A stretch of 63,260 nucleotides of DNA, filler included, from Atractiella rhizophila (GCA_021432655.1; 5 parts of 4 records of this genome joined end to end with filler, not necessarily neighbours in it); one strand, 5' to 3'. Counted from the first letter of the whole stretch, positions 10,623 through 40,314 are shown. The notes: generated by a model not told the origin, from the letters alone. Made by a program: numbers and translations.

Positions 10623-11034
10623 GATAAGGCTGATAGTAATATAGTACGTATGTCTCACGTTGAATCGCGTATTGGCGATTGCTCAGACTCTTCGAGACTG
10701 ACTCGAATGTGTGGCGAGAAGAAAGCTTTGATACAGACAGTTGACCAAATGTTGGGTTTGTCAGGTGTCAGGTGCGACTAGTGTCTTCAGAACTCTCACC
10801 TCAGGACACCAGGTGAGCACTTCAATACGGAGCCTTTAGCTCTCTTCCGAAAGAGTTCTACTTGGGGCTGAAATTTGTGATGGATAGGTTCCCTTGACGC
10901 TCAGAACACAAACACAATGACGACGACGATCAGATTTGAAAATGTTTTGCGTTCACTTGAATTCCTCCTATCACAAAAATTCTTTACTATCTATTCTAAC
11001 AATTTCTATCCAATTTATCCAATTATGCGTCGAA

Positions 11035-12770
11035 CTAGACCCTCTCGCGTCGTCTCCTCCAATTGTCCTTCTTGATGAAACCATCACCATCAAACCCGAT
11101 CGCTATCAAACCCAACCAACCACAGAACGCCACGGCCATGCGAACCTCTTCTACCTTGACAAACGCCCATTCCACATCGATCTTCTTGCCCTTGCATGTA
11201 ATGCGCATGAGAAGGTTCGCTTTATATCAGTCAGGTGAATGTAATCTGTCTTGTAGTACTGGGTGTACCTCAAGACTTGAGGCATGATGTATTTAAGATT
11301 ATCTGTCGTTGGGATGATCTCATCCCAAAATCCGGCTTGCGGGTTGAGATTACTATTGCTAGGCATCATCCTAGTCAATTTGTGCATATCTTTCTTCCTC
11401 AAGGATCCATATTTCTGTCTTAAAATGTCAGCTTGTGCATCAAAACGGCTAAAGATTTCTTTCTTTGATTTCCTGTAGGATTCTTCTTTTTCACCTGTGG
11501 TTTTGTTTCCCCCGATAATTCCACCACACGGAAAAGATGTATTAAATTGCTTGGGTAGAACATATTTTTATGAACGTCAAGGAAGAGGGCACCTGAACTG
11601 CCATAATTATCTTGTCCTGATCCCGCTGTAATTTCTGCCTTCGCGGACAACGTAGATACCCCCTGGAACAGCATTGCCTACTACATTGACTGTGGTATCA
11701 CCAGGGATACTTTGCCTAACTTCTGAAAAACAGTGGACCGTAGAACAGTCTACATCTCTGCCTGGTATCTTACGTTGTGTCAGTCCAACAAGTGCGTCCG
11801 AAGCAAGTGTAACCGGAGTATTGCAGTCTTTTTCGATCTGCCCCCTTCGCAGTCTTTAATATTGTTCACATCGAAAACGGAAACTCTTACGTCGGCTTCG
11901 TTTCTCCCTTCATCGAAACAGGGATGTCCAGTGCACAGTGGCACCTGCGGACTGTTGGCCTTTTTTGACCTTTTTCTTAAAAATCCGCATATGTAGATGT
12001 GGTTGAGTTCGAGTTCCTCTTGCCCTCAACGTACTTCTCAACGAACTTCCACCATTCTACCTCTTTGAATTTGACATTTTCGCACTTTAGTGATTGCTGC
12101 GCTTCTGCCTTCGTCCCTCTTGGATGAGTAAGATTTTATGGTCGAATCATCCTCAGCTCCAGCGATTGGCGTGAGTCCGGTCGAAAGCGTTTCGAGGATA
12201 GTTTGAGTTATTGTCGGAGGGGGTGTAAATCAATACCGTGGGACGTCGGTTAGTTTGGTGAATCGTGGGAAGACCACACAAAGTTGCCTTCAGTTGTGGT
12301 GGTGGATGTGGTCGACATCTTCGATGAGTAAAGCAGCTTTGGATGGGGTATGGATGTCTTGCAAAGCAACCCGTCGTTTACAATATTGCTGCATGTCCTT
12401 CGGGCCTGTTGTCATTCTTCACGCTACCTTGTCTCAGGCTGCCCTGCTCGCATGTTGCCCTTGTCCGCTTCACAACCTTTCGATTTACCCCCTTTATTTT
12501 TTCAGCTTCCTTTCACCTGAACTGCCAGTCCACAAGGCATGGCGTCGTTATCTCGACAACAAGCGCCTCCAACAAACTTTCCTCTTTCTTTCCTTGTGGA
12601 GACCTTATATCTTCTTCTCGAACAAGGTCGTGAACAACCTTTCCGTATTCTAGAAATGTCACGTCTTCCATGTAGCTGGATAGCAACTAACACTTGCCTT
12701 CTTTGTTCCATAACATAACCAGACTCGGAACATAAGAACCAAAGCACTTTATGTTCGTACATCACTGAAC
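11035..12770 (-). pseudogene. PD-(D/E)xK-type nuclease-like pseudogene, unit 1
   Basis: Reconstructed across frames: ILQEIK|KYGSLRKKDM..KYIMPQVLRYTQYY..YIHLTD..VEWAFVKVEEVRMAVAFCGWLGL. Contains frameshifts. Clear DNA paralogue of 19628-21300. 5' limit approximate. Confidence 0.65.
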
Positions 12771-12850
12771 CACGAAACTTTCCATTGCATGGTCTTTGGG
12801 CAACATCGACCGCAAGGTTAATCTGTTGACAGCTGCTACAGGATCAAAGG

Positions 12851-14990
12851 ATGCAGAACCTGCGACTCGGAGCATTCCTTAGGCCTGACCCATCCGTCTT
12901 GCTTGAGCCGCTTTCTCTGCAACATGCACCGACTCTCATACTTTCCGAAAAAATTAATTATCATCCCGGATGCTTGTGGGAGGAAGTCCAAAAGGACGGC
13001 TTCAATATTCCATCTCGTTCCACTGGAAGACATTATTCTGTGACTTATATGGACGACCTTTTAGCTGAACTTGAAGCCATGAAACGCTATAATTTTGTGG
13101 CATTCAGTGAGTACAGCTGCATCAAAGAGTTACTTGGGTAAGTCCTACAGCAGACACACCATTCGTGGCGAGTTTTTACCTTGATGTAGTGGGGATTCTC
13201 ACCGCTTAAGCTGTTTCTTGGAGGATCTTCAGCGCCTCCTATCCTTCATTCACCCAGCCAATTGTTTAGCGCCGATTCACATTCGTTATCAACCAGCCAG
13301 TGACAGTATGTTCGCCTCTTTGCCTTGCAATTTTAAACCAGAAGTGGTCCGCGTCTTACATCGCGATCATTGCATGTTAACCATCGTTCTTCTGGTAAGT
13401 TGTAACTTACCTCTGACTACAGATATTGACATTTAATGCCACTCCTAGCCGCCTGGATCTCTTCGGGATGATGATTGGGTGGGATTTGAAACGACAGGAC
13501 TCGCTGAAGTGGACGACAAGGCGGTGATTCGAGGACAGTACATGCGATTCCTTTCTGTTGTCATGGCGGAAGAACCTTTAGAATCAATCGCCGTCTTCTG
13601 CGACCTGCAGTCTTCCGTGACATTTCGATTAGACTATGATATCTCCTACGCATTCCATTCGCAGGAGCCTTATCTTCCTTTCTTGACGATGCTTTATGAA
13701 CAGTTGAACAATGGCTGGCATAGCAGGCAGTATTTTCGTCGTACTGGACTGCCTCTTTTCCCGGACGTAGCTGTTTTAGGCTGTCGAAGAGATCCTTCAG
13801 CTGGATTGGAAGTTGATTTAACAGCCATATCCAAATCTTCTGATTTTGACACATTTGATGTTCAGACCGCTGACTACTCTCTACAACAAGCCATTACATT
13901 GTGGCATCAGGAGCGCTTGCAGAAAGGGATTTTATGGCTGGAGAACTTACAAATACCTGGAACAAGCATGACCGTTGTGTCTGTTCTCGAGCCAACGAAC
14001 CCCAGGTCCACTGAACCTCTGCTAATTCTAAGTACCAATGATCCGCTTGTGCTTTTCCGACAGAACGTTATGCTTCACGCCATGTCGAAGCAGCGATCTT
14101 CCCTGCCGGCCCTTGATCTCAAAACCGGCGAATCTATACAGCTTCTTCGTTCTCTCAGGTCCGGCCAACAACTGTGGGGACAAGTTTACGAAGTTACGAT
14201 CCCTGAAAGAGACCTCAACGGCACCCGTCTTGTCCTGAAGATTTATGAAGAACGTTTGTATCCCTTTCCAGCCTGGAACGGAGCAGGGGAGGAAGCTTGG
14301 AAACGCATTCGCCGTTGGCCAGACGCAAACGATTGCTTGACGCGGGAGCAATCTGCATATTCTTGGTTACACCTACTCCAAGGGTCAGCTATACCGAGGT
14401 CTTATGGTTTCTACGAGGTGAGCTTGGTGGGTCGCATCCCGTCGAAAATGAGAGAGAGAGACTAGGTACGGCTGCCGGATGGAAAGGTGGCACCAGCACA
14501 CCTGCTCGAGTTTGTCGAAGGTCCTCATATCGACGAGGTAGATCTGAAATCACTTTCAGCTGAAGATCAACAGGCATTCGTCAGGATTTCCTCATCTACA
14601 TCCTCCTCATTGGCTGATCTCTGTTCAAAGTACATCAACGCGATGACGATGATTGGCGCCATGGTGCTTCTTGGTGTGAATCATACCGACATTGACCAAC
14701 GTCCAGACCAAATTATCTGCCATACCAATGGATCCGGAGTGCCTAATCCCGTCCTGTTAGATTTTGGAATGGCGAACTGTGGCATTTTCATGGACGACAG
14801 CACTCTACTCTCAAAGGATACAGGATGGAACTTTCAACTGATCAAAACTCCAGATTCAATGCACATGGCGTGGACCTTAAACCAATATCTACCTTGGGAT
14901 GTAACAGAACATCCGGAAGTGGTTTCAACTTACGCCTGGAAGTGGATGAAGACGGCAAAATTTGGACCTTTCGACGTGAAGTGGGAATGA
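12851..14990 (+). CDS. Protein kinase-like protein with N-terminal restriction-endonuclease-like domain, copy 1
   Basis: Exons 12851-13137, 13190-13394, 13449-14417, 14466-14579 and 14631-14990 join in frame. Motifs GQQLWGQVY, VLKIYE, REQSAY, LLEFVEG, HTDI and LLDFG. Confidence 0.85.
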
Positions 14991-15069
14991 CTGTTAGGAT
15001 GGATGTCGGACCATTACATTTTAGATTACAAGTAGACAGCACATCAATGCATTTCGTTACGAATCCCAG

Positions 15070-15200
15070 ACACCCCAGTTGCTACAGTTTCATCTCCCTC
15101 TGCCTTACCATAGTCTCAATAAGCAGCAATGGTGGTCTCGGAAGTCTGGTTGCCAGGAACCTTGTGTGGTCGACGCCTTCCGAGATTCCTGACTTCCAAG
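15070..15200 (-). pseudogene. Relic of the 3' end of the RING/TRAF gene
   Basis: ctacagtttcatctccctctgccttaccatagtctcaata..ggaagtctggttgccaggaacctt matches 23628-23730. Confidence 0.6.
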
Positions 15201-16020
15201 CACGCTGATCCAGTTTTAGATCGTTCTGATTGGAAGTGTGTTCGAAGATGTGAGTTGAGGTCTACATGAAATTCGAAAGCATTTATTCTTTTACCGACAC
15301 TCTGGGCACTCAGGTGTCCAAACTGTTCCACGGTTGTTAGGCTCACGCGTTGAGGTTTGGCTTGCGAGGGTTCTGCGAGCCAACGAGAGCTTGTGAGCTT
15401 TGAAAGGAACTCAAACGAGGTGGTAAGTAGAAGCAATGCTCACCCGCCACCTCTAGGGGTTTGGGTAGGAGACAGCCTGAGCTCTGCAGTGGAGGGAGGG
15501 TCGGGCAAAGAGACGATGCAATCAAAGAGAGTTGAAAGGAGAGCTTTGGAGAGCGGTTGGTCGATGAGTTTGGTGATCTCTGTGCGTTTGGACTTGGACC
15601 TGGATCCTTTCCAATGTGTGGTGAGAAGCTGGCTGAAGCTCAAGCTCGACACTAGCTGTTCTGAACTTTGAACCGCATCTCGAAGGAGAGGAACTGGTGA
15701 GTTGGGTTAGTCAAAAGGATATAAACTGTACTCCAGGTGAGCCCTTTCAAGTTGACCCAGTTATTTTGAGCTACTATTATTTCACTCTGCCGTTCATCAA
15801 CTTGCGAAAGCAATCATTTGTTTGTTTTTGAATTCAGATTGGGGCAGAAATGTGTGTACTTTGTTCTGGGTGTCCTCATTCTACCTGTGAGCATGAACAA
15901 GATCTGCTATCAGAGTTTGGTGGTTTGGGTGTTTAAACCTTTCAATTTCTCCGGACAATTTTTCTAACCTATCCAGTTTTTCCAATTCTACACAATTCAT
16001 TCATAGAGCCTTGTGCGTCC

Positions 16021-16150
16021 TTATCTTAAACTCCCCGCCTCCACGAAGCCATCGCCATCAAACCCGATTGTTATCAAGCTCAACCAGTCGCAGAATGCCG
16101 GGGCCATGGCAACCTCTTCTAACTTGACAAACGCCCATTTCCACGTAAAG
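16021..16150 (-). pseudogene. C-terminal remnant of the nuclease-like gene, unit 2
   Basis: Encodes WAFVKLEEVAMAPAFCDWLSLITIGFDGDGFVEAGSLR*. The rest of the gene is deleted, so the remnant ends about 35 nt before the kinase copy 2 ATG. Confidence 0.7.
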
Positions 16151-16184
16151 ATTTATCTATTGACGGCTGCTGTAGGATTGGAGA

Positions 16185-18295
16185 ATGGAGAACGTTCGTC
16201 TTAGAGCTTTCCTTCGGCCAGATTCCTCCGTCCTGCTTGAGTCGCCTCCTCAACACGCCTCGAGTTTCTCACAACAAATTGATTACCACCCCAAATGCTT
16301 GTGGAAGGAAGTCCAAAAGGATGATTTCAATATTCCGTCTCGGAGGACTGGAAGATTCTTTTCGGTGACGTATATGGACGACCTTAGGGCTGAACTAGAA
16401 GCCCTAAAACGCTATAATTTTGTGCCATTTGATGACCACAACATGGCCAGAGGGCTGCTTACGTAAGTCTAATAACTGGTGTGGCGAATTTTGATCCCGG
16501 CGTAGTGGTGATTCGCATCGTTCAAGCTGCTTCCTGGAGGATCTCCAGCGCCTTCTGTCCTACATTCATCCGGCTAATTGTCTAGCAACAGTTCAGATTC
16601 AGCGTCAATCACTAACTAGCATTGATACGCTCGCCTCCTTGCCTTACAACTTGAAACCAGAAGTTGTCCGGGTTAGACATTATGACCATTGCATTATGAC
16701 GATTGTCCTTTTGGTGAATTGTCATTTGCCCTAACTACAGACATCTAATGAATCTTCTAGTCACCCGGATCTCTTCGGGATGAGGATTGGTCAGGATTTG
16801 AAAAGACAGCATTCGCTGAAGTGGACGACAAGGCAGTGATTCGGGGGCATTTCATGCGACTTCTTTCGTTTCTGATGGCTGAAGATCCGCTGAAATCCAT
16901 CGCTGTCTTCTGTGACATGCAGTCTTCTGTGACCTTTCGGTTGGCTTACCGGGTTCTCTATGCTTTTCATTCGCAGGAGCCATATCTTCCTTTATTGACC
17001 CTGCTTTACGAGCAATTTGATATCGGCTCGCGTTGCAGGCAGTACTCCCGCCGTACTGGGTTGCCTCTTTTCCCAGACGTAGCGGTTTCAGGATGTCGAA
17101 GAGATCCATCAGCTGGATTGCATATTGATTTAACAAACATATCCAAATTCTCCGAGTTTGACCCATTTGACGTTCAGACAGCTGGCTATGCTTTCCAACA
17201 AGGGATTCTATCGTGGCATCAGGTGCGCTTGCAGACAGGGCAATCATGGCTTGATAATTTGCTACTGCCGGGAGAGAAACTACCTGTTGTCTCTGTTCTC
17301 AAGGCAACGGAGTCCATGTCCACTGAACCAATGCTGATTCTCAGTACCACTGATCCTCTTGTGCTCTTTCGACAGAATGTCATGCTTCATGCCATGTCGA
17401 AGCAACGATCTTCCTTACCTGCCCTTGAGCTCAAAGTTGGCGAATCTATACAGCTTCTTCGTTCGCTCAGGTCTGGGTCACAACTATGGGGTCAGGTCTA
17501 TGAAGTTACGATCCTCGAAAGGAACCTCAGCGGTACACGTCTTGTTCTGAAAGTTTATGAAGAACGCTTGTACCCCTACCCAGCATGGGAGGCACCCGAT
17601 GAGGAAGCTTGGAAACGAATTCGGCGCTGGCCGAACGCAATGGATTCCTTCACACGGGAACAATCCGCTTATTCTTGGTTACACCTACTCCAAGGGTCAG
17701 CTATACCGAGGTCTTATGGTTTCTACGAGGTGAGCTTGGTGGGTCCCATCCTATCGATACTGAAGAGAGACTAGGTACGGCTGGCTGATGGAACGGTGGC
17801 ACCGGCACACCTGCTCGAGTTCGTAGAAGGTCCCCATATCGACGGGGTAGATCTGAAATCACTTTCAGCTGAAGATCAACAGGAATTTGTGAGCATTTCC
17901 TCATCTATCCCCTTCCCATTTGCTGATTTTGGTAGTACATCAACGCAATGACGTTGATTGGCGCAGTGCTACTTCTGGGTGTGAATCATACTGACATTGA
18001 CCGTCGTCCAGACCAAATTATCTGCCATACCAATGGATCCGGAGTGCCTAGCCCCGTCCTGTTGGATTTTGGAATGTCGAACTGTGGCATTTTCATGGAC
18101 GACAGCACTCTACTTTCAAAAGATACAGGATGGGACTTTCAACTGATGTCCACTCCAGATTCAATGCATATGTCGTGGACTTTGGAGGAGTATCTACCTT
18201 GGGATATAGCAGAGCATCCAGAAGTGATTTCGACCTATGCCTGGAAGTGGATGAAGACGGCCAAATTTGGACCTTTCGACGTGAAGTGGGAATGA
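16185..18295 (+). CDS. Protein kinase-like protein, copy 2
   Basis: Same 5-exon structure as copy 1 and splices in frame. Motifs VLKVYE, HTDI and LLDFG. Same C-terminus KFGPFDVKWE. Confidence 0.85.
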
Positions 18296-18399
18296 CGCTT
18301 CGTTTTAGGTTAAATGTCTGGTCATTACATTTAAACTACAAGTAGGCAGTAAGTACCACAACACCACAGCGCATTTTGTTACGCACCTTCAGTTGGTAC

Positions 18400-18780
18400 A
18401 ATGTCATTTTCCACCTGCTCCCAGCACCGTTAGTCCCAATACCCCAATTGGCCATGGGAACGACCTTTGACGGCGCAGGAGGAGAGGCCGATTGTCATGG
18501 TCGCTCCTTTTTTCTTGTGCATTCCAAGGTGGATTCCAAGGTGGAATAGACCCAGGCTGCGAAGGCGACAAGGACCAAATTGTACCCTTCTTGCATCTCA
18601 TCCCCTTCGAGCTTCGTTTGCGCATAGTCACACCGTTGTCTTCCTGTCTCCTTAACGGCCTCGTCAGAATCTAACCACCAACCCTCTCAATGCAACTTCC
18701 TGTCCCCTCTCACCCGCTGATGGGACACTCATCCTTCAAGACTTCCTCAAGCGTCATGGCCTCAGGCCCGTAAATTACAT
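18400..18780 (-). pseudogene. Degraded relic of the RING/TRAF gene
   Basis: tagtcccaataccccaa matches about 23660. ttgcatctcatccccttcgagcttcgtt..cacaccgttgtcttcc..gacactcatc matches 24320-24470. Confidence 0.65.
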
Positions 18781-18839
18781 TGAAACACGCCGGGAAATTG
18801 GGTAATCGAGTTTCCCTGACGGAGCAATAGAGGCAAAAG

Positions 18840-19360
18840 TGGATGTGAGGCAGGTAGCAACCTGCTGGCTGTAGAGAATGTACTCTGCTTCGGCCGTTGA
18901 ACTTTTCAATCGTATTAAACCATTTTATATATGATCATCGCGGGTGGATCAAGCGGGGCGATGGGCTCCGAGCCAGCTGAGCCGAGATAAGTCTCTCAAC
19001 AGACAAAACAGTGACGAACCGTCCAAGCATGTCACAAAGTACATGATGAAGTTGGGCAGTAAGCATCAATGCATGTACGTATCTGAAGCGCAAGTCAGGG
19101 AGAGGTAGAGCAGTACTCACGTAACGGCATCATCTGCTCTTGCAATCTGATATGTACCGACTCCACTTTGGCTATCATGCACAATATCCTACCTAAGAAC
19201 TTGAGAGCTGCGTCAGTGGCTAAACTTGAAATGGTGAGGGAAGTGCCAAAAGGTAGGACGTAAAGCTGACGAGAGGTCAAACACGAGGGCATGTGAGGAG
19301 GATTCATAATTTCTTTTAGCTGGCGCATGATGACAAAATGACTTTGAGGTGTGGCGAGAA
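18840..19360 (-). pseudogene. Degraded relic of the ATG7 5' region
   Basis: ttgaacttttcaatcgtatt matches about 10103, actcacgta..tctgctcttgcaatc about 10378, ctatcatgcacaa about 10459 and gtgtggcgagaag about 10709. The blocks are colinear. Confidence 0.65.
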
Positions 19361-19627
19361 GCAACGGACGGAGAAAGAGTAAACTTCACTTCTCCAGACC
19401 AGACCAGACGGGGGCTTCAGTAATTACTGATAGATACTTCTTTCAAGGTGAGCCCTGAGCACTTCAATATCCGCTTTGTCTTTCGCTGCAATTCAGAAGG
19501 GAAAAATTCTTTTGAGTTCGGCTTGCGCGACATCATTTCTGCCTTCTTGTGGCCCTTTACAAGTTTATAAGCTCTTGAAACATTGTCTAAGATTTCACTT
19601 CACCCTATTCACTTCCTCCCATTACTC

Positions 19628-21300
19628 TTAATACCTGGCTTTCCCCAACTTTTCCTTCTTGACGAAGCCATTGTTGTCAAAGCCGATTGATTTCAAGCCC
19701 AACCAGCCACAGAATGCTACGGCCATTCGAACCTCTTCTACGTCAACAAACGCCCATTCTACGTAGATTTCATCATCCGTATGTATGATACGCATGAGGA
19801 GATTTGATTTGTGGTCAGTCAGGTGGATGTAACGTGCCTTGTAGTACTTTGTATACCGGAAGACTTGAGGCATGATGTATTTGAGTTTGTTTGTCAATGG
19901 AATCATCTTATCCAAGATCGAATATGTACTTTGAGATTCTCGCTAGGAGGCATCATCCGAGTTAGTTCGACAATGTCGCTCTGCGTAAACGCCCCATGTT
20001 TCTGTGTCAAACTGTCAGCAATTGCCCACAGAGTTAACGAATTATCTTTCTTTGATTTCCTGTAGCAAGAAGTTTCGTTCTTGTTTTTCCTGATTCTTTT
20101 CGTCGCCATCGAGAAGTTCTACGACGCGGAAGAGATAATCCACTCGCACTGAAGCTGTCTTGTCAGAAATCTGCGAAATGGAAGCATGTGCGTACCTGAA
20201 CTCCCGTGATTGTCTGCCCCAGATGCACCGAATGCAGCTGTAGCTTCTTTGTTCTTTTGCATCGTGGATACTTCTGAACCAGCTTTGCTCGCTGCATTGA
20301 CTGCATTATCTTTGGCAATGCTCTGTCGGACTTCTGCTTAACAGTGGACCGTAAACCGTGTTACGTGCCTACTGTTTGATCTGTGACTCTATCTGTACGT
20401 GGCCATGGCGTTCAGAGAAAGAGTAACAGGTGTGTTACAGTCTTTTATGATCTGCCCGCTTCGTATTTTAAGAATGCTTGTCCTTGAAAAGTGAACATTC
20501 TTACGCAATGTCAGCTTCATTTCTCGCTTTATCGAAACAGGGGTGGGCAGTACACAGAGGTAACTGAGGTGGCGCTGGCTTCCCACAGCCGGGGCTGGAA
20601 AATTCCTTGACGTCTTCCTCAAACTTCGTATATGTTGAATGTTCGCCCTGCTTATCCAGTGGCTCTTCCGTGAAATGCCGCCAGTTTACCTTCTTGAATT
20701 GAATTTGTTCACATTTTAGAACCTCTTTCGCCTCTCTTTTCGTCCCATTGGACGAGTAAGACCCTGATGTCGAATCGTTGGATCCTGGATGGCCAAAGAT
20801 TGGAGTGAGTTTGGTCAAAAGCGTGTCGAGGATGGTCTGAGTAAGACTGTCTGGAGGAGGTCTAAAGTAAGTACCGTGCGACGGCAGCTGATCTTGTGGA
20901 CAATACTCGGAAGACCAGACAAATGGCATCTTGGTTGGCAGGGGTGTGTGGGATATGGTACGAATGTTTCATCAAGCAAACCCATTTTTATATGTTGCCC
21001 TCATCCCTTTCTGACATGCTGCCTTTCTCCATGCTGCCGTTATCTCGTTTTAATTTGAGACACACGACACTTCTTTCGCCTTTGTCTATCTTGTTCTTGG
21101 GTATGGCACGTCACAAGTCGCCATTGTTCCAACGATACGCCTTCTTCGCGCACAAGGAAGCTCTTCGCAGGATCTTTGTGCCTTATTCTCACATACATTT
21201 ATCGTCAAGCCTTGTTAACATTCTCGAATTCTATTCTTCAACGTTTAAGCCTCAACTCTGACCGATAGACTTGTTGCCAATCTGGCTTTATGTTCTCATC
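19628..21300 (-). pseudogene. PD-(D/E)xK-type nuclease-like pseudogene, unit 3 (best preserved)
   Basis: Spliced SS|ASVRVDYLFRVVEL..NFLLQEIK|KHGAFTQSDI..KYIMPQVFRYTKYYKARYIHLTD..EWAFV..RMAVAFCGWLGL. In-frame stop at about 20338, frameshifts at about 19915 and 20505. 5' limit approximate. Confidence 0.7.
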
Positions 21301-21395
21301 GATTAGGCGATTCAAACTTTCAAATTCGTAAACTTCATCCATCTGACTTCAAACCTAGGACAAGCTGAATACTAAACGGAGTTCCGGATTGAAGA

Positions 21396-23522
21396 ATGCA
21401 GTATCTACGCCTTACAGCATTCCTCAAGGCCGATCCGTCTGTGGGATTGTTGAAATTGCCCTCACTTCAGCTTAACACCGCAATTTCATTTTCAGAAAGC
21501 GAATATCACTGCGAATGTTTGTGGAAGAGAGTCAGAAAGGATGATTTCAATGTCCCTTCTCGCGACACTGGAAGATTTTTTAGCGTGACTTATATGGATG
21601 ACCTCCGAGGCGAACTGGAAACGCTGCGTCACCACGCGTTTGCGCCGTTTAACAAGGACATCAAGGTCACAGGTTTACTTGCGTAGGTTTGCCACTGGTG
21701 CGTCAATCGTAACGAGTTTGATTTGGATGTAGCAGCGATTCACATCACTTAAGATCTTTTATACAAGACCTCCAGGGACTTCTCCCATACCTTCACCCAG
21801 CGAGTTGTCTGGTACCTGTTCACATCCAATGTGAATCACCTTGTGACCGTACTCTTGATTTCATGCCTTGGAGTTTCGAAGCGGAAGTTGTACGCATTTT
21901 ACATGGTGACCATTGCATGATGACGATTGTGGTTATTGTACGTTGTGATCTACCTGTGGCCACGGAGCTGATCCATAACCATCCTAGCCACCGGGATCCC
22001 TTTGTGAGAAGGATTGGTCGGGATTTGAAAAGGCAGAATATGATGCGATCACCAGCACCACGTCGATTTCAGGGAAATACATGCGACAACTTTCACTTTT
22101 CATGAAAGAAGAGCCTTTGGGATCGATCGCTGTTTTCTGCGACCTGCAATCCTCCGTAACCTTCCGATTGGGTTACTCCATTTACTATGCTTTTCATTCG
22201 CAGGAGCCTTATCTTCCTTTCTTGACGATGCTTTATGAACAGTTTAACAATGGCTTGCAGAGCAGGCAGTATTTTCGTCGTACTGGACTGCCTCTTTTCC
22301 CGGACGTAGCTGTTTTAGGATGCCGAAGAGATCCTTCAGCTGGATTGCAAGTTGAATTAACGACTGTCGCCAAATCTTCTGATTTTGACACATATGACGT
22401 TCAGACCGCCGACTATACTTTACAACAAGCCATTATATTGTGGCATCGGGAGCGCTTGCAGAAAGGGGCGTTATGGCTGGAGAGTCTGCAAGTACCTGGA
22501 GCAAGCATGACCGTTGTGTCTGTTCTCGAACCAACGAACCCCAGGTCCACTGAACCTCTGCTGATTCTCAGTACCTCTGATCCTCTTGTGCTTTTCCGAC
22601 AGAATGTCATGCTTCACGCCATGTCGAAACAACGATCTTCTTTGCCGGTCCTTGCTCTCAAAACCGGCGAATCTATACAGCTTCTTCGTTCTCTCAGGTC
22701 CGGCCAACAACTGTGGGGACAGGTTTACGAAGTTACGATCCCTGAAAGAGACCTCAACGGTACCCGTCTTGTCCTGAAGATTTATGAAGAACGTTTGTAT
22801 CCCTTTCCAGCCTGGAATGGAGCGGGGGAGGAAGCTTGGAAACGCATTCGCCGTTGGCCAGACGCAAATGATTGCTTGATGCGGGAGCAATCTGCATATT
22901 CTTGGTTACACCTACTCCAAGGGTCAGCTATACCGAGGTCTTATGGTTTCTACGAGGTGAGCTTGGTGGGTCCCATCCTATCGATACTGAAGAGAGACTA
23001 GGTACGGCTGCCGGATGGAACGGTGGCACCAGCACACCTGCTCGAGTTCGTAGAAGGTCCCCATATCGACGAAGTAGATCTGAAGTCACTTTCAGCTGCA
23101 GATCAACAGGAATTTGTGAGCATTTCCTCATCTATCCCTTTCCCATTCGCTGATTTTGGTAGTACATCAACGCAATGACGATGATTGGCGCCATGTTACT
23201 TCTAGGTGTGAATCACACTGACATTCAGCAACGTGCAGACCAAATTATTTGCCATATTAATGGGTCCGGAGTGCCTAACCCCGTTCTGCTAGACTTCGGA
23301 ATGTCTAATTGTGACATATTCATGGACGACAGTACTTTACTATCAAAAGAGACGGGATGGAACTTCCAATTGATAGGGACTCCAGATTCGATGCACATGG
23401 CGTGGACTTTAAACCAATATCTACCTTGGGATATAACAGAACATCCGGAAGTGGTTTCAACGTATGCCTGGAAGTGGATGAAGACAGCAAAATTTGGACC
23501 TTTCGACGTGAAGTGGGAATGA
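21396..23522 (+). CDS. Protein kinase-like protein, copy 3
   Basis: Same 5-exon structure and splices in frame (exon 2 from 21733, exon 3 from 21988). Kinase motifs conserved, N-terminus more diverged. Confidence 0.85.
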
Positions 23523-23627
23523 AAGTTTCATTTTGGATTCGATGTCTGGTCATTACATTTAAACTACAAATAGACAGTACAAATACACAACAATGCATTT
23601 CGTTTCGCATCTCAGACCCCTCAGTTA

Positions 23628-24817
23628 CTACAACTTCATCTTCTCCCTGCCTTTAGCACCATAGTCCCAATACCCCAACGGTGGAGGCGGTCTGGGAAGT
23701 CTGGCTGGCGGAAATCTTGTTGTCCAGACCTTTGGCTCCCCTACATGTGTTGTCCAGACCTTTGGTTCCCCTACATGCTTCACACTCTTGTCTACATTCA
23801 GCTCGTCCTCTTCCCCTTCACTCCCTCCACTGCTAGCACTGCTCGTATTTGCTAAAGACGGCAGGAGAGTTTGTTGAGTTCGCAAGAGCTCCATTTCCAT
23901 CCGTAAATCGTGGGCCAGGTGTCGAAATGACTCTAGTTCCTCCCGAATTGCAATGGCATCCTCATCTCGACACCCTTTCAGCAGCGACATCTCCTCGCGA
24001 AGAGTTCGGATTTCGTCTTGAAGAGAGTGTACAGACGTTTCGTACTGTTTGCCGAGGCTGAGGCGGGAGGATCGTTCGATGGATAACTCCATGGAAAGAG
24101 AAGAAAGAGATTGGCGATGTCTGCGGAGCAATGTCGAGAGCTTGTTGTAGATACACGAACGGAGGTGAACAGACAGCTCGTCCATGGTGTCCGTGGCAAT
24201 GGGTTTTGGTGACGGAGGCGGGGAGGTAGATGTCGAGGCATCGCTCCTTTCTTCTCGCTCGCTCTGAGGCGGAATAGCAGGCGGCGAAGGAGATGATGAC
24301 CAATTGCAACCTTCCCGCCACCACTTGCATCTCGTCCCCTTCAAGCCTCGTTCCGGCGCAGCCACACCATCGTCTTCCGTCTCCTCAGCCCCTTCTTTAG
24401 AAACAAAGCACCCACCCTCTACATGTTGCTTCAAGTCTCCTCTCCTCCCGGTCCAGTGACACTCATCTCTCAAACATTCCACCTCCAAATCATCCAGCAT
24501 GCCGCGCACCAAAGTTGGGGCAGGAGTAACAGTCTCTTCCAGGAACAATTTCCGATCGATGGGACACTTCAAAAATGCACCTTCTTCTTCAGCGGTTGTG
24601 CATAGTTTCTCGAGGCAAAAGCTGCAGAATATGTGCAAACATGGAAGCATTGTTGGTTCGACCATTGGATCTCTACAAATGTCATCAGCTGGGAACGGAA
24701 ATCACATCAAAAAACGCACCGGCATATTGGGCATTCAAGGTTTTGTGGCGGAGCGGAGGTGTAAACATAGGCGCCAGGATGTGAGAGTGCCAACAACAAC
24801 GAGGCGGAATCCGTCAT
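23628..24817 (-). CDS. RING-finger (C3HC4) / TRAF-zinc-finger coiled-coil protein, putative E3 ligase
   Basis: First exon MTDSAS..QNLECPIC|RDPMVEPTMLPCLHIFCSFCL..CPIDR, then VEC..CHWTGRRGDLKQHVEGGC and a coiled coil. Confidence 0.85.
23719..23778. repeat. 30-bp tandem duplication inside the RING gene (HVGEPKVWTT x2)
   Basis: gttgtccagacctttgg(c/t)tcccctacatg occurs twice in tandem. Confidence 0.9.
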
Positions 24818-37058: not shown

Positions 37059-38458
37059 CTACCACTTTAATTTTCCCTGTTGTGCGTGAGAAGAGTTCTT
37101 CTCCGCTTCCCATCTCTCTCTCGCTTTCGCTTCACCATACTTCCAGCCCGCTTCCTCCAACTCTGAAACGTGACCTTCAAAAATCCACCAACCAGCCAGA
37201 GGTCGCACTGTATCAGTCGTTGCCTTCGTTCCCACCAATCCGGAAACCATGGTTGTCTTGAATTCCTTTCCATTGTCTACCAATCTAACGGGTACTGTGG
37301 CGAAGGACTTTGTCACCGAAGTTTGCTCCATGGCGGGGTAGAGAATGCCGTCAAGTTCGAGAACAATTTTCTGCTCCTCACCATGGTACCGGTAGTAATA
37401 AAATTCGGGATCACCGCTCTTGACTTTAGACGAGTCAAACTGTCGTTTGCCATCTTTACCCCAAAATGAGAAAGCAGTAATCCAACCTGACGTGGATATT
37501 AGTTTGCTTGCAAAGAAAGGACAAGATGCGTACCAGAGTACTCCGGCTCACCGCTTCCTAATGGGCTGGCGGAATAGATTCTGTTCCAGAAATCCTTATT
37601 CTCTTCTCCTTCTGGATCGTCAAATGCGCCAACGAAACGTCTGAGAATGGGCCGCAGGGATTTGGCGAATTGAAATGGTTCCTCCCCAAACTCATCGAAT
37701 CTGTCCAGTTTAGACAGAAGCATTTCCCAGTCCTCCTTCTTCCCTTCCAACGTGACTTCCGGCAATCCACACCTTGTCATAAAACAAGAAATAAAGTAAG
37801 ACTGTAGCGTAGACATCATAAGCACCGCTGCGACGACTTTGTCATTTTCGGTCGTGGTAGAGAACGAAGGGAGGATCCATGACTTCAAGGTGGGGTCAAC
37901 GATATTATTCTCCATCAGCGAAGTCATCCTTTGCGCCATTAACCCAAAGTCAACAGTATAGCGCGTGGTGTTTTCTTCCACCACCACCAATTCTTTCTGG
38001 CCTTTGTGGGAGACAAAGTAACTCCGAAGATTCTCGGAGTTGGCATTGATGAAGAGATTGAACTGGGATAGAATCGTGAGCCTGCACACGTTGAGATTCT
38101 TCTTACTTCACGACTTCGTAGGGAATGAAGGGGACATACCAAACGTCGTCCGGCCGGATCACAACCTTGTGGTGGTGATTGTACGCCAGGACAAGCGTAT
38201 CCTATCATGGCTTCAGGATTACCAGACGCGAGAAAAGATGAGAATACTTACCACGAATCCATTGGCTTGTGGTAGGATTGTCCCCTCTCTGTACTCAGAC
38301 GGTGGAACGGAGCTTTGAAAGATCTCTGGAACCACAACCTGACCGGCATACGGGAGCTCTCTAAACTGGGTCTGTTGAAGGTGCTCGAGCGGATTGGAAA
38401 CCGGGTGTCCCTTTACAGACTCAACTGGTTTAGAACAAGGGTGGAAAGTGACGGGCAT
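37059..38458 (-). CDS. DUF4419 family protein, copy 1
   Basis: NGFV..AYNHHHKVVIRPDDVW..ILSQFNLFINANSE..WILPSFSTTT..CGLPEVTLEG..GWITAF..RPLAGWWIF. Confidence 0.85.
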
Positions 38459-39003
38459 GATGCTCAGAAGCCATCCAGAGGTGATGCTGGCTCGCTTTAT
38501 AAGGCGAGAGAGTTTACGAACGTACTGTTAGAGCCGCAGAGGATCCCTCATACGTGATACCATTAACCCTCACTGGAGCGACGTTGGCATGCCGCATGAC
38601 AGATGTGTTGACACACCGATAATATGATCCAATAGATCGACAAGCATGACCGGATGACCTCTAGCTGACTCCTTACGCTAGCATACTGACAAGGGACACT
38701 TTTTCTCGAGCCTCTTCAAAGTGCATAAGATGCAATAACTACAAATTAGATTCTTTCGCTTTGTCGAGTTCAACCCTGAATCAGTTCCTGCAACCCAAGG
38801 AGTAGCGTAATTTTCTTCTCTGTCTCACGAAATCAGCTTTGTCACATTGGATAAGGCATTGGTTACATCACAAAGACAGAAAGTACAATTCCAGCAAGAG
38901 AAAATGGAAACATAAGTTGCAGGTCCTAAGAAGTCATTAACTACCACTTCGATCCCCAGGGTGGTACCTTGGACATCCGCTTCTCGACTCTGTATGTTTT
39001 CGC

Positions 39004-40314
39004 TCAAGCATCCTTCCTCATCGCCACTTCTTTCCAATTTGAAACGTCACCTTCAAAAATCCACCAGCCGGCTAGAGGTCGTACAGCGTCCCTCGTTGCT
39101 CTTGTTCCCACCAAACCGGAAACCATGGTTGCGTTGAATTCCGCTCCATTGTCGATCAATCTAACAGGCACACTAGCGAAAGACCTGGTGACTGACTCTT
39201 CGAGCATGGTGGGGTAGCAGATGCCATCTAGTTCCAGGACATTTTGTTGGCCAACACCGACGGGAAAGAAGTCATCATATTTAGGGGGACCTCTCTTGAC
39301 TTTTGAAGAGTCAAACTGTCGTTTGCCATCCTTATCCCAAAAAGAAAAAGCCGTAATCCACCCTGATGTTCACGTTAGCTTGCTGGCGAAAAAAGGTGAA
39401 AATGCCTACCAGAATACTCGGGGTCGCCGCTTCCCAATAGGCTGGAAGAATAGATTCTGTTCCAAAAATCCTTATTCTCTTCTCCTTCGGGATCTTCAAA
39501 AGCGCTGACAAAGCGTCTGAGGATTGGTCTCAAGCATTTAGCAAATTGGATCGGTTCTTCCCCAAACTCATCGAATCTGTCCAGTTTGTCGAGAAGCATC
39601 TCCCAATCCTCCTTCTTTCCTTCTAACGTGACCTCTGGCAGTCCACAAAATGTCATAAAATCATAAGCGAAATAAGACTGCAGGGTCGACATCATGAGCA
39701 CGGCAGAGACAACGGTGTCGTTGTCGGTGGTGGTGGAGAAGGAAGGGAGAATCCAAGCCTTCAGGGTAGGGTCGACGATGCTGGCCTCGATCTGGGAAGT
39801 CATCCTTTGCGCCATTACCCCAAAGTCGACGGTGTAGCGAGTGCCATCTTCTAAAACCACCAATTGTTTCTTGCCTTTGTGAGAGACAAAGTAACTCCGA
39901 AGAGTATCAGAGTTAGCATTGACGAAGAGATTGAACTGAGATAAAATCGTGATCCTGTATAGGTAAGTCCATGTAAATATCATTCGAGATTAATAGGGCA
40001 AACCAAACGTCGTCCGGCCGGATCACTACCTTGTGATGGTAGTTGTATGCTAGGACAAGCGTATCCTACCATGATTGAGCATCATCAGACACGAGGAGGA
40101 TACTGATTACCACAAATCCGTTGCTCTGAGGTAGTATTGCTCCGTCTCTATAATCAGTAGGCGAGACGGAGCACTGAAAGATCTCTGGGACTATCTGATC
40201 TGCATTGTCAATGTCTCCGAACTGTGTCTGCTGCAAATGCTGCAGTGGGTTGGAGACAGAATCAGCATTAACAGGTTCGGCTAGTTTAGAACAAGGGTGG
40301 AAGGTGACAGGCAT
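39004..40314 (-). CDS. DUF4419 family protein, copy 2 (tandem paralogue)
   Basis: Same exon structure and motifs as copy 1. Confidence 0.85.

Follow-up and report, generated by a model that had tools for sequence, protein, structure and literature searches.

A tandem array of intact kinase-like genes with decayed antisense partners in Atractiella rhizophila, possibly the remains of a split Spok-like module

The Spok1–4 proteins of Podospora are unusual among meiotic drivers in that one protein both kills and protects; in the accounts drawn on here, killing is the task of an HsdR-like nuclease part with a QxxxY motif and protection that of a kinase part of atypical, ELK-like type, whose way of neutralising the nuclease has yet to be explained. 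In the portions of Vogan et al. 2019 (PMC6660238) that we cite, SPOK3 is described as having a disordered linker, a PD-(D/E)xK motif at residues 219–240 and QxxxY at residues 294–298, with HsdR as its best HHpred match; K240 is required for killing and D667 for resistance, and the kinase-less Spok3(1–490) is toxic and is rescued in trans by full-length wild-type Spok3. The same portions discuss Spok relics that retain the resistance part alone, and the part of Urquhart et al. 2022 (PMC9972908) used here attributes the toxicity of Spok1, in both E. coli and yeast, to DNA damage. Here we describe a stretch of DNA of 63,260 nucleotides (nt) from Atractiella rhizophila (GCA_021432655.1; five parts of four records joined with filler), hereafter the window, in which positions 11,035 to 23,522 hold three tandem units, each pairing a plus-strand kinase-like gene (gene A; copies k1, k2 and k3) with a minus-strand gene (gene B). 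We propose, tentatively, that these units are the remains of a Spok-like toxin–antidote module split into two genes.

An old tandem triplication copied this two-gene unit. When the 10–24.5 kb region was used as a BLASTN query against the whole window, the plus-strand genes of units 1 and 3 matched with 81.1% identity over 2233 nt (12959–15165 and 21504–23720), those of units 1 and 2 with 79.6% over 2241 nt (12814–15039 and 16148–18349), and those of units 2 and 3 with 78.0% over 2195 nt (16281–18447 and 21501–23678). For the minus-strand gene, units 1 and 3 showed 68% identity over 941 nt (11059–11950 and 19645–20569; expect value (E) 9e-70); unit 2 carries a remnant of 100–112 nt (16043–16154), in the place and orientation of the two larger copies, whose 3' ends it matches at 84% and 79% identity. 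B is linked to A in 3/3 units of the window, one of them as a relic. This self-comparison bears out a first-pass annotation of the region, which had described three tandem units, each with a minus-strand and a plus-strand gene, and whose coordinates lie within a few bases of our gene models (for A, ATG at 12851, 16185 and 21396 and stops at 14990, 18295 and 23522; for B, limits that match stops at 11035, 16021 and 19628).

All three A copies are intact and evolve under purifying selection, and they are represented by spliced contigs in X3, one of three sequencing runs (X1, X2 and X3) compared with the window. Each has five exons and zero internal stops, and the encoded proteins are 71–79% identical in pairwise comparison. 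In k1 (12851..14990, plus strand, 644 residues; exons 12851–13137, 13190–13394, 13449–14417, 14466–14579 and 14631–14990, separated by GT..AG introns of 48–54 nt) the spliced frame is open and contains Lys428, the HTD Asp545 and the DFG Asp569; its introns agree with the public A. rhizophila gene models P0002 and P0003, and introns 3 and 4 are backed by the X3 joints 14417|23002, which runs across paralogues, and 14578|14631. The exons of k2 (16185..18295, plus strand, 642 residues) are 16185–16462, 16506–16712, 16760–17729, 17775–17888 and 17936–18295, with an X3 joint at 16462|16506, and those of k3 (21396..23522, plus strand, 643 residues) are 21396–21682, 21736–21937, 21988–22956, 23002–23115 and 23163–23522, with X3 joints at 21682|21736, 21937|21988 and 23115|23163; all four of these joints have GT..AG ends. 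Among k1 to k3, the ratio of nonsynonymous to synonymous divergence (dN/dS) is 0.22–0.26 overall and 0.10–0.19 in the kinase part, at an overall synonymous divergence (dS) of 0.54–0.69. Divergence falls along the gene from 5' to 3', from a dS of 1–2 (0.97–2.07) in the first 170 codons to 0.30–0.49 in the kinase part. This gradient indicates that the array is old; its cause may be gene conversion that has kept the 3' halves alike, or a difference in age between the parts.

All three B copies of the window are damaged. The copy in unit 3 (19628..20929, minus strand; ATG at 20929, a first open reading frame (ORF) of 142 codons and a stop codon at 19628–19630) is the best preserved, and its frame is interrupted at least twice, near 20051 and near 19925; the conserved segments lie in different frames, and some of the breaks are introns. 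The break at about 20051 falls directly after the EIK codons of a candidate catalytic motif described below. One base is missing there from the X1 and X2 contigs that cover it, which restores the frame of P0009, a public model whose residues 1–131 are 94.7% identical to the translation of 20929–20537. At the break near 19925, P0009 bridges the gap by a 23-nt 'intron', whereas unit 1 reads through with 8 extra residues. (Dynamic programming also yielded a reading without stops, from ATG 20929 through four GT..AG introns to stop 19628, which was rejected because it removes the conserved D-motif and helix segments.) In unit 1, B is a pseudogene (11035..12282, minus strand; stop codon at 11035–11037, similarity to unit 3 recognisable as far as ~12282): read in the frames of unit 3 it has 3 in-frame stops and 23 of 308 codons gapped, and 11 of the indels between it and the unit-3 copy have lengths not divisible by three, with frame shifts visible in a three-frame translation. 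Unit 2 (16021..16152, minus strand) retains, in frame, the final 43 codons with their stop codon and has lost the other ~1.6 kb by deletion; the relic borders directly on the upstream region of k2, at a position, 16148, equivalent to 12814 of unit 1.

The B sequences nonetheless carry the marks of past constraint. Between units 1 and 3, dN/dS of B is 0.30 overall and 0.19 in the C-terminal segment, and the stretches KDCNTPVTL and EVRQSI differ, in an alignment read by eye, by synonymous changes alone. The dS of B between the same units, 1.03, resembles that of the adjacent 5' part of A and not that of its kinase part, which indicates that B was duplicated together with A and not inserted later. 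B was thus for long a genuine coding gene, was copied along with A and decayed recently.

Other pieces of the unit, and probably another copy, are also visible. In a single X3 contig of depth 47 and 6.5% divergence, 34 other letters stand in place of 423 nt of the unit-1 B, at 11806–12230; its probable source is another paralogous unit in a different part of the genome. The spacer after k2 (18299–18739; also 15002–15165) contains diverged pieces of the region downstream of k3: 23527–23678 matches 18299–18447 at 74%, and part of the coding sequence of a RING-finger gene, 24267–24473, matches 18539–18739 at 71%. The duplicated unit must therefore once have extended into the RING-finger gene. Two X3 joints of the CT..AC (minus-strand) type, 18335>18387 and 18649>19120, indicate that something within this relic region is transcribed and spliced.

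The contigs also bear on how the two genes are arranged as transcripts. X1 and X2 are DNA runs, and the kind of X3 is not on record. Of the 15 joints listed, nine have canonical GT..AG or CT..AC ends, all in X3, and six of the nine fall at predicted introns of k1 to k3; there were no such canonical joints in the DNA runs among the joints listed. Since canonical splice-type joints are confined to X3, this run behaves as RNA. One X3 joint (19445>21357, cut +2, side of 27 letters), present in a single contig, links 19447 to 21359 with the ends AG|GTGAGC ... CCTAG|G; its left 27-mer is unique in the window, and the downstream exon opens 37 nt before the ATG of k3. The joint defines a 1.9-kb intron in the 5' untranslated region (5' UTR) of k3 (19448..21358, plus strand) that encloses the whole of the unit-3 B in antisense, and thus implies that at least some k3 transcripts start upstream of B and splice it out. 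Upstream of the k2 ATG, a transcribed stretch at 15735..16184 (plus strand) passes unspliced through the B relic, so the 5' UTR is at least this long: record 17 of X3 covers 15735–16462, 16506–16712 and 16760–17189 with 0 mismatches and is spliced at two predicted k2 introns. The two genes had been described as diverging head to head, which holds for their coding parts; however, the X3 kinase transcripts begin beyond the minus-strand gene, and the pair is thus not only divergent but nested and antisense, as seen in single contigs, which show no strand. X3 has no cover over 10800–11661, and, among the joints listed, zero fall inside the minus-strand gene of unit 1 or unit 3.

At 15110–15540 the summed contig depth is far above its surroundings in all three runs (in X1, 2106 against ~130–490), which suggests a repeat with many copies in the genome that occurs once in the window; this segment has Ser/Pro-rich ORFs and an X3 joint of the CT..AC type (15372>15444). 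Across 10800–23700, the contigs of X1 and X2 fall into two kinds: some are identical to the window, at a depth of ~130 in X1 and 90 in X2 (for example 11270–12295 and 15395–17399), and others are 1–2% diverged from it, with a transition bias, at ~320 and 230 (for example 13181–13537, 19336–20674 and 21240–22239). Unit 2 is covered by the exact kind only and 19420–20281 by the diverged kind only; the two kinds may represent unequal haplotypes with a varying number of units, or collapsed paralogues. Contigs of X2 and X3 place 355 additional letters between 18448 and 18449 of the window.

That A is a kinase, as it had been labelled, is favoured by its motifs and by fold and look-alike evidence that is one-sided though weak, but no Pfam model hits at threshold. 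The β3 lysine (VLKIY or VLKVY), HTD and DFG are conserved in k1 to k3 and their paralogues, the loop following the pattern HTD(I)(D/Q)(Q/R)R(P/A)DQII, and in k1 to k3 the spacing from Asp to DFG is 24. The kinase-clan models of Pfam all scored below cut-off on the A paralogues (the best being ABC1, E 0.084, and Pkinase, E 0.31), and a PDB sequence search with profile A1 returned chance-level matches alone; the PADLOC kinase PD-T4-6 matched the paralogue P0005 at E 7.8e-4. In the ESM Atlas, the nearest neighbours of P0005 are fungal clusters named 'protein kinase domain-containing' (scores 0.95–0.97), its ten best family-bearing matches share one kinase family or clan, and, by structure, rows 2–10 are mostly kinases. 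At ranks 9 and 14 of the feature search with full-length P0005 stood clusters in which 98% and 44% of members carry SPOK2_N, the Pfam family (PF27653) for the N-terminal nuclease region of Spok, and the neighbours of the kinase-like protein include SPOK2_N+Kdo clusters. A Foldseek comparison, which the first-pass annotation had proposed, was run against the PDB with an AlphaFold2 (AF2) model of P0005: all 45 matches listed are protein kinases, three of them with E ≤ 1e-3 (best E 4e-4; TMt 0.30–0.45), but the model is of low confidence, with a predicted local distance difference test (pLDDT) score of 39. Taken together, the C-terminal half of A is likely an atypical kinase-like domain, which is predicted to be probably active. 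The N-terminal α/β region of A (~330 residues) is covered by an AF2 model of the paralogue P0015 (pLDDT 42), which in Foldseek and VIA-wide searches gave generic α/β matches alone and no nuclease match (best E 0.08, Z 5.2), a result that tells neither way.

For B, we judge a nuclease-like fold to be probable, with room for doubt. A candidate PD-(D/E)xK motif, LLDGD..(13)..LLQEIK, lies at 20051..20110 on the minus strand (Asp codon 20110–20108, Lys codon 20053–20051), and a QxxxY motif at 19853..19867 (minus strand; QVFRY, with QVLRY in unit 1) falls in the best conserved part of the gene. P0009 presents a low-complexity linker followed by D181/D183, E197-I-K199 and Q253xxxY257, and the motif, taken by itself, is the same in unit 3; in unit 1 the D..EIK stretch is broken by indels (6/33 codons gapped). 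The probable motif named earlier had been another, D..EVR, which we set aside in favour of D..EIK, as a 51-nt intron may take up part of it and two stops interrupt its unit-3 counterpart. When the ESM Atlas was searched by structure with P0009, the top row was a cluster with SPOK2_N in 100% of members (template modelling (TM) score by query 0.43, 176 residues aligned); the other rows comprised three clusters with HSDR_N_2 in 100% of members (TM by row 0.46–0.56), a fourth with HSDR_N_2 in 13% of members (0.50) and one without a family (0.44). A feature search returned SPOK2_N in 4/30 matches (score 0.90, 179 shared features). The nuclease-like label that B had been given is thus favoured by its Atlas look-alikes and by its motif, but finds no significant profile or sequence support.

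Sequence searches, both word-indexed and with HMMER, found no relatives of A or B outside proteins named Atractiella rhizophila. Within that species the public protein collection, which does not contain k1 to k3 themselves, holds at least 10 distinct kinase-like models on 4 contigs (129.7, 66.7, 74.4 and 38.4 kb) against one B homologue, P0009, which lies on the 66.7-kb contig together with four kinase-like models of a subfamily of 40% identity. Metagenome scans with A6 and with P0009 matched 203 and 193 patterns, of which zero encode a relative. In the public assembly, some pairs of kinase-like proteins (within P0004–P0020) on different contigs (38.4, 74.4 and 66.7 kb) are >90% identical and may stem from haplotigs, and P0015, an N-terminal part, adjoins P0006, a C-terminal part, under consecutive accessions, the two being fragments of one gene, as in several such models. 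The assembly is probably haplotype-redundant, with poor gene models for the kinase family.

Among described systems, the Spok proteins offer the closest comparison. B resembles the nuclease part of SPOK3, as reported in the portions cited, in the order and spacing of its motifs (54 residues from K to Q in P0009, as against K240 to Q294), and the Atlas neighbours of B are SPOK2_N and HsdR_N clusters while those of A include SPOK2_N+Kdo clusters. Spok families, as far as those portions describe them, duplicate, diverge and pseudogenise and may lose the killing part first, which is like the decay of B beside an intact A. Unlike Spok, a single polypeptide with an N-domain, a nuclease, a Cys cluster and a kinase, the present system consists of two genes on opposite strands; moreover, the host appears to be a basidiomycete, all nuclease-like copies are damaged, and the system is known here from sequence alone. 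Our literature search turned up no report of a Spok homologue from Basidiomycota or of a split, two-gene Spok. The N-terminal nuclease domain of HsdR (Pfam HSDR_N and HSDR_N_2) has the same D..ExK..QxxxY order as B, but is bacterial, forms part of a large motor enzyme and shows no sequence-level match to B. On the side of A, the top neighbours (0.95–0.97) are Atlas clusters of fungal atypical kinase-like proteins, mostly from Basidiomycota and with weak Pkinase, APH, Kdo or ABC1 matches; one such cluster, a basidiomycete protein of 471 residues, aligns with the A protein over 388 residues, including the N-domain (TM by row 0.66), but these clusters have no similarity to A that HMMER detects. 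Crinkler-type effectors are eukaryotic conflict proteins in which restriction-endonuclease-fold and kinase domains are joined, whereas here the two lie in separate genes; no Crinkler N-terminal or secretion features were noticed, although no search aimed at them was made.

The reading that we favour, while regarding it as possible and not as established, is that the units are a decayed, split Spok-like toxin–antidote module. B would be a nuclease-like protein of the PD-(D/E)xK type, similar to the N-terminal part with which Spok kills, and the kinase of A would resemble the resistance part. A free-standing gene of this kind next to a kinase-like gene is the form that a split Spok would be expected to take. 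B would damage DNA, and A would neutralise it in trans by phosphorylating the nuclease or the target of the nuclease, a rescue modelled on that of truncated Spok3(1–490) by wild-type Spok3. After fixation the toxin genes would have decayed and the antidote-like kinases been retained; by analogy, decay of the toxin with retention of the antidote would be an expected end state. The fuller form of this proposal, a natural split Spok-type system in a basidiomycete with the toxin nested antisense in the 5' UTR intron of the antidote, whose transcription would run through it, the toxins decayed and three orphan antidotes persisting, we consider somewhat unlikely.

A number of observations weigh against this proposal. 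Significant homology of B to Spok or to any nuclease was found in none of the sequence and profile searches: Pfam gave nothing significant on 17 ORF pieces, P0009 and the A paralogues; PADLOC had no match to B; the best PDB sequence match of P0009, an ABC ATPase at E 0.25, is at chance level; and a phmmer search of P0009 against 1.84 billion representatives gave 3 matches with E ≤ 1e-3, namely the query itself, a tandem-repeat protein from a sea spider and a second tandem-repeat protein, the last two of which we took to be repeat artefacts. The Atlas evidence for B is one source and a lead only, in which the model of B itself has a pLDDT of 0.40 and all TM scores by query are < 0.5. P0009 is a patched gene model that skips conserved coding segments, and its K-to-Q distance of 54 residues hinges on the patched 23-nt 'intron', the unit-1 reading giving 62. 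Unit 1 has the second candidate motif, D..EVR (11700–11760), which leaves the catalytic assignment uncertain. In A, position D+5 of the catalytic loop, which reads HTDIDQRPDQII, is not occupied by the usual Asn, and a relaxed pattern for the Cys/His cluster of Spok (C-x3-C-x13-C-x5-H-x7-H) was found in 0/11 kinase-like proteins, k1 to k3 having 1–2 Cys alone within the 200 residues before the VLK Lys. An hhalign comparison of the B protein with the A family gave a probability of 0.1%, that is, no relation. P0009 is six accession numbers away from the nearest kinase-like model on its contig. Tandem duplication copies neighbours regardless of any joint function, and since a piece of the RING-finger gene was copied as well, the co-duplication of A and B proves little. 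Finally, as none of the three B copies is intact, a toxin function here would be past. The two-gene, Spok-like selfish system put forward in the first-pass annotation thus draws on the SPOK2_N and HsdR_N look-alikes, the motif, the co-duplication and the decay of B, but has against it that there is no significant homology, no Cys/His cluster and no intact B.

Nearly as likely as the split module is an ordinary explanation, in which A is a lineage-specific family, expanded in tandem, within the large and poorly annotated group of fungal atypical kinases, and B is a neighbour without kinship to it that evolves fast, shared in the duplications and is now disappearing, with no toxin–antidote relation between them. 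The restriction of all relatives to A. rhizophila, with at least 10 kinase-like models on 4 contigs to one B, fits this explanation, as do the Atlas clusters nearest to A (ranks 1–8), which are generic basidiomycete and ascomycete kinases. B has no significant homologue anywhere searched and appears dispensable, having been deleted or broken while A stayed under purifying selection, and the piece of the RING-finger gene dragged along illustrates that bystanders get copied. On the other hand, the family-bearing Atlas neighbours of B are all SPOK2_N or HsdR_N, which would be unexpected for a random orphan, its D..EIK..QxxxY motif has the right order and spacing, and the nested antisense layout couples the transcription of both genes. 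Nuclease–kinase pairings, moreover, recur in fungal conflict systems, Crinklers among them. Spok is another such pairing, at least in the portions of PMC6660238 cited here.

Two further explanations appear improbable to us. B could be a selfish or mobile nuclease gene lodged in the 5' UTR intron of kinase-like genes, which would be landing sites or bystanders. The unit-3 B does lie wholly inside the 1.9-kb intron of k3, B has been cleanly removed from unit 2, and P0009 is ~95% identical to the unit-3 B, yet the annotated kinases of its contig are ~40% identical to k1 to k3. However, between units 1 and 3 B has diverged (dS ~1) about as far as the neighbouring 5' part of A, so the two were co-duplicated, and no terminal repeats or target-site duplications were noticed, although no systematic search was made. 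P0009 may also be the unit-3 allele on a contig of the other haplotype, with unannotated kinases alongside, and the DNA runs indeed carry a variant that is 1–2% diverged across 19.3–22.2 kb. Equally improbable is the idea that A alone is the Spok-like unit, a degenerate nuclease-like N-domain joined to a kinase and kept for resistance only or repurposed, with B a diverged, functionless inverted partial duplicate of the 5' half of such a gene. The SPOK2_N clusters (98% and 44% of members) among the Atlas features of P0005 speak for it; so does the order α-β-β-β-α-β-β-β-α of the N-domain in both AF2 models, which would be compatible with a restriction-endonuclease-like core, and, by eye, the N-domain of A and B share the Q-helix, three strands and the helix order. 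It is opposed by the hhalign probability of 0.1%, by the generic α/β matches of the N-domain model (Z ≤ 5.2) and by the fact that no acidic/Lys catalytic triad is conserved in that domain.

The surroundings of the array are those of a fungal genome, with short GT..AG introns and flanking genes for ATG7, a RING-finger protein, an NLE-WD40 protein, an ADP-ribosylglycohydrolase and DUF4419 proteins; no tRNA genes were found in the window. Two adjoining DUF4419 genes at 37062–39989 (minus strand; Pfam E 1e-67 to 1e-69) form a further tandem duplicate.

If the link to Spok proved wrong, the locus would be ordinary: an old, conserved, lineage-restricted family of kinase-like genes with a decaying, co-duplicated partner. 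If the units are instead what remains of a split Spok-like module, the known range of Spok-like systems would extend beyond Ascomycota to Basidiomycota, and the locus would be one more example of a toxin that decays while its antidote is kept, with antisense nesting as a possible layer of control. Separate genes would allow toxin-only and antidote-only proteins, each of which could be studied alone, and their existence would mean that Spok-like killing and Spok-like resistance can each evolve in a gene of its own.

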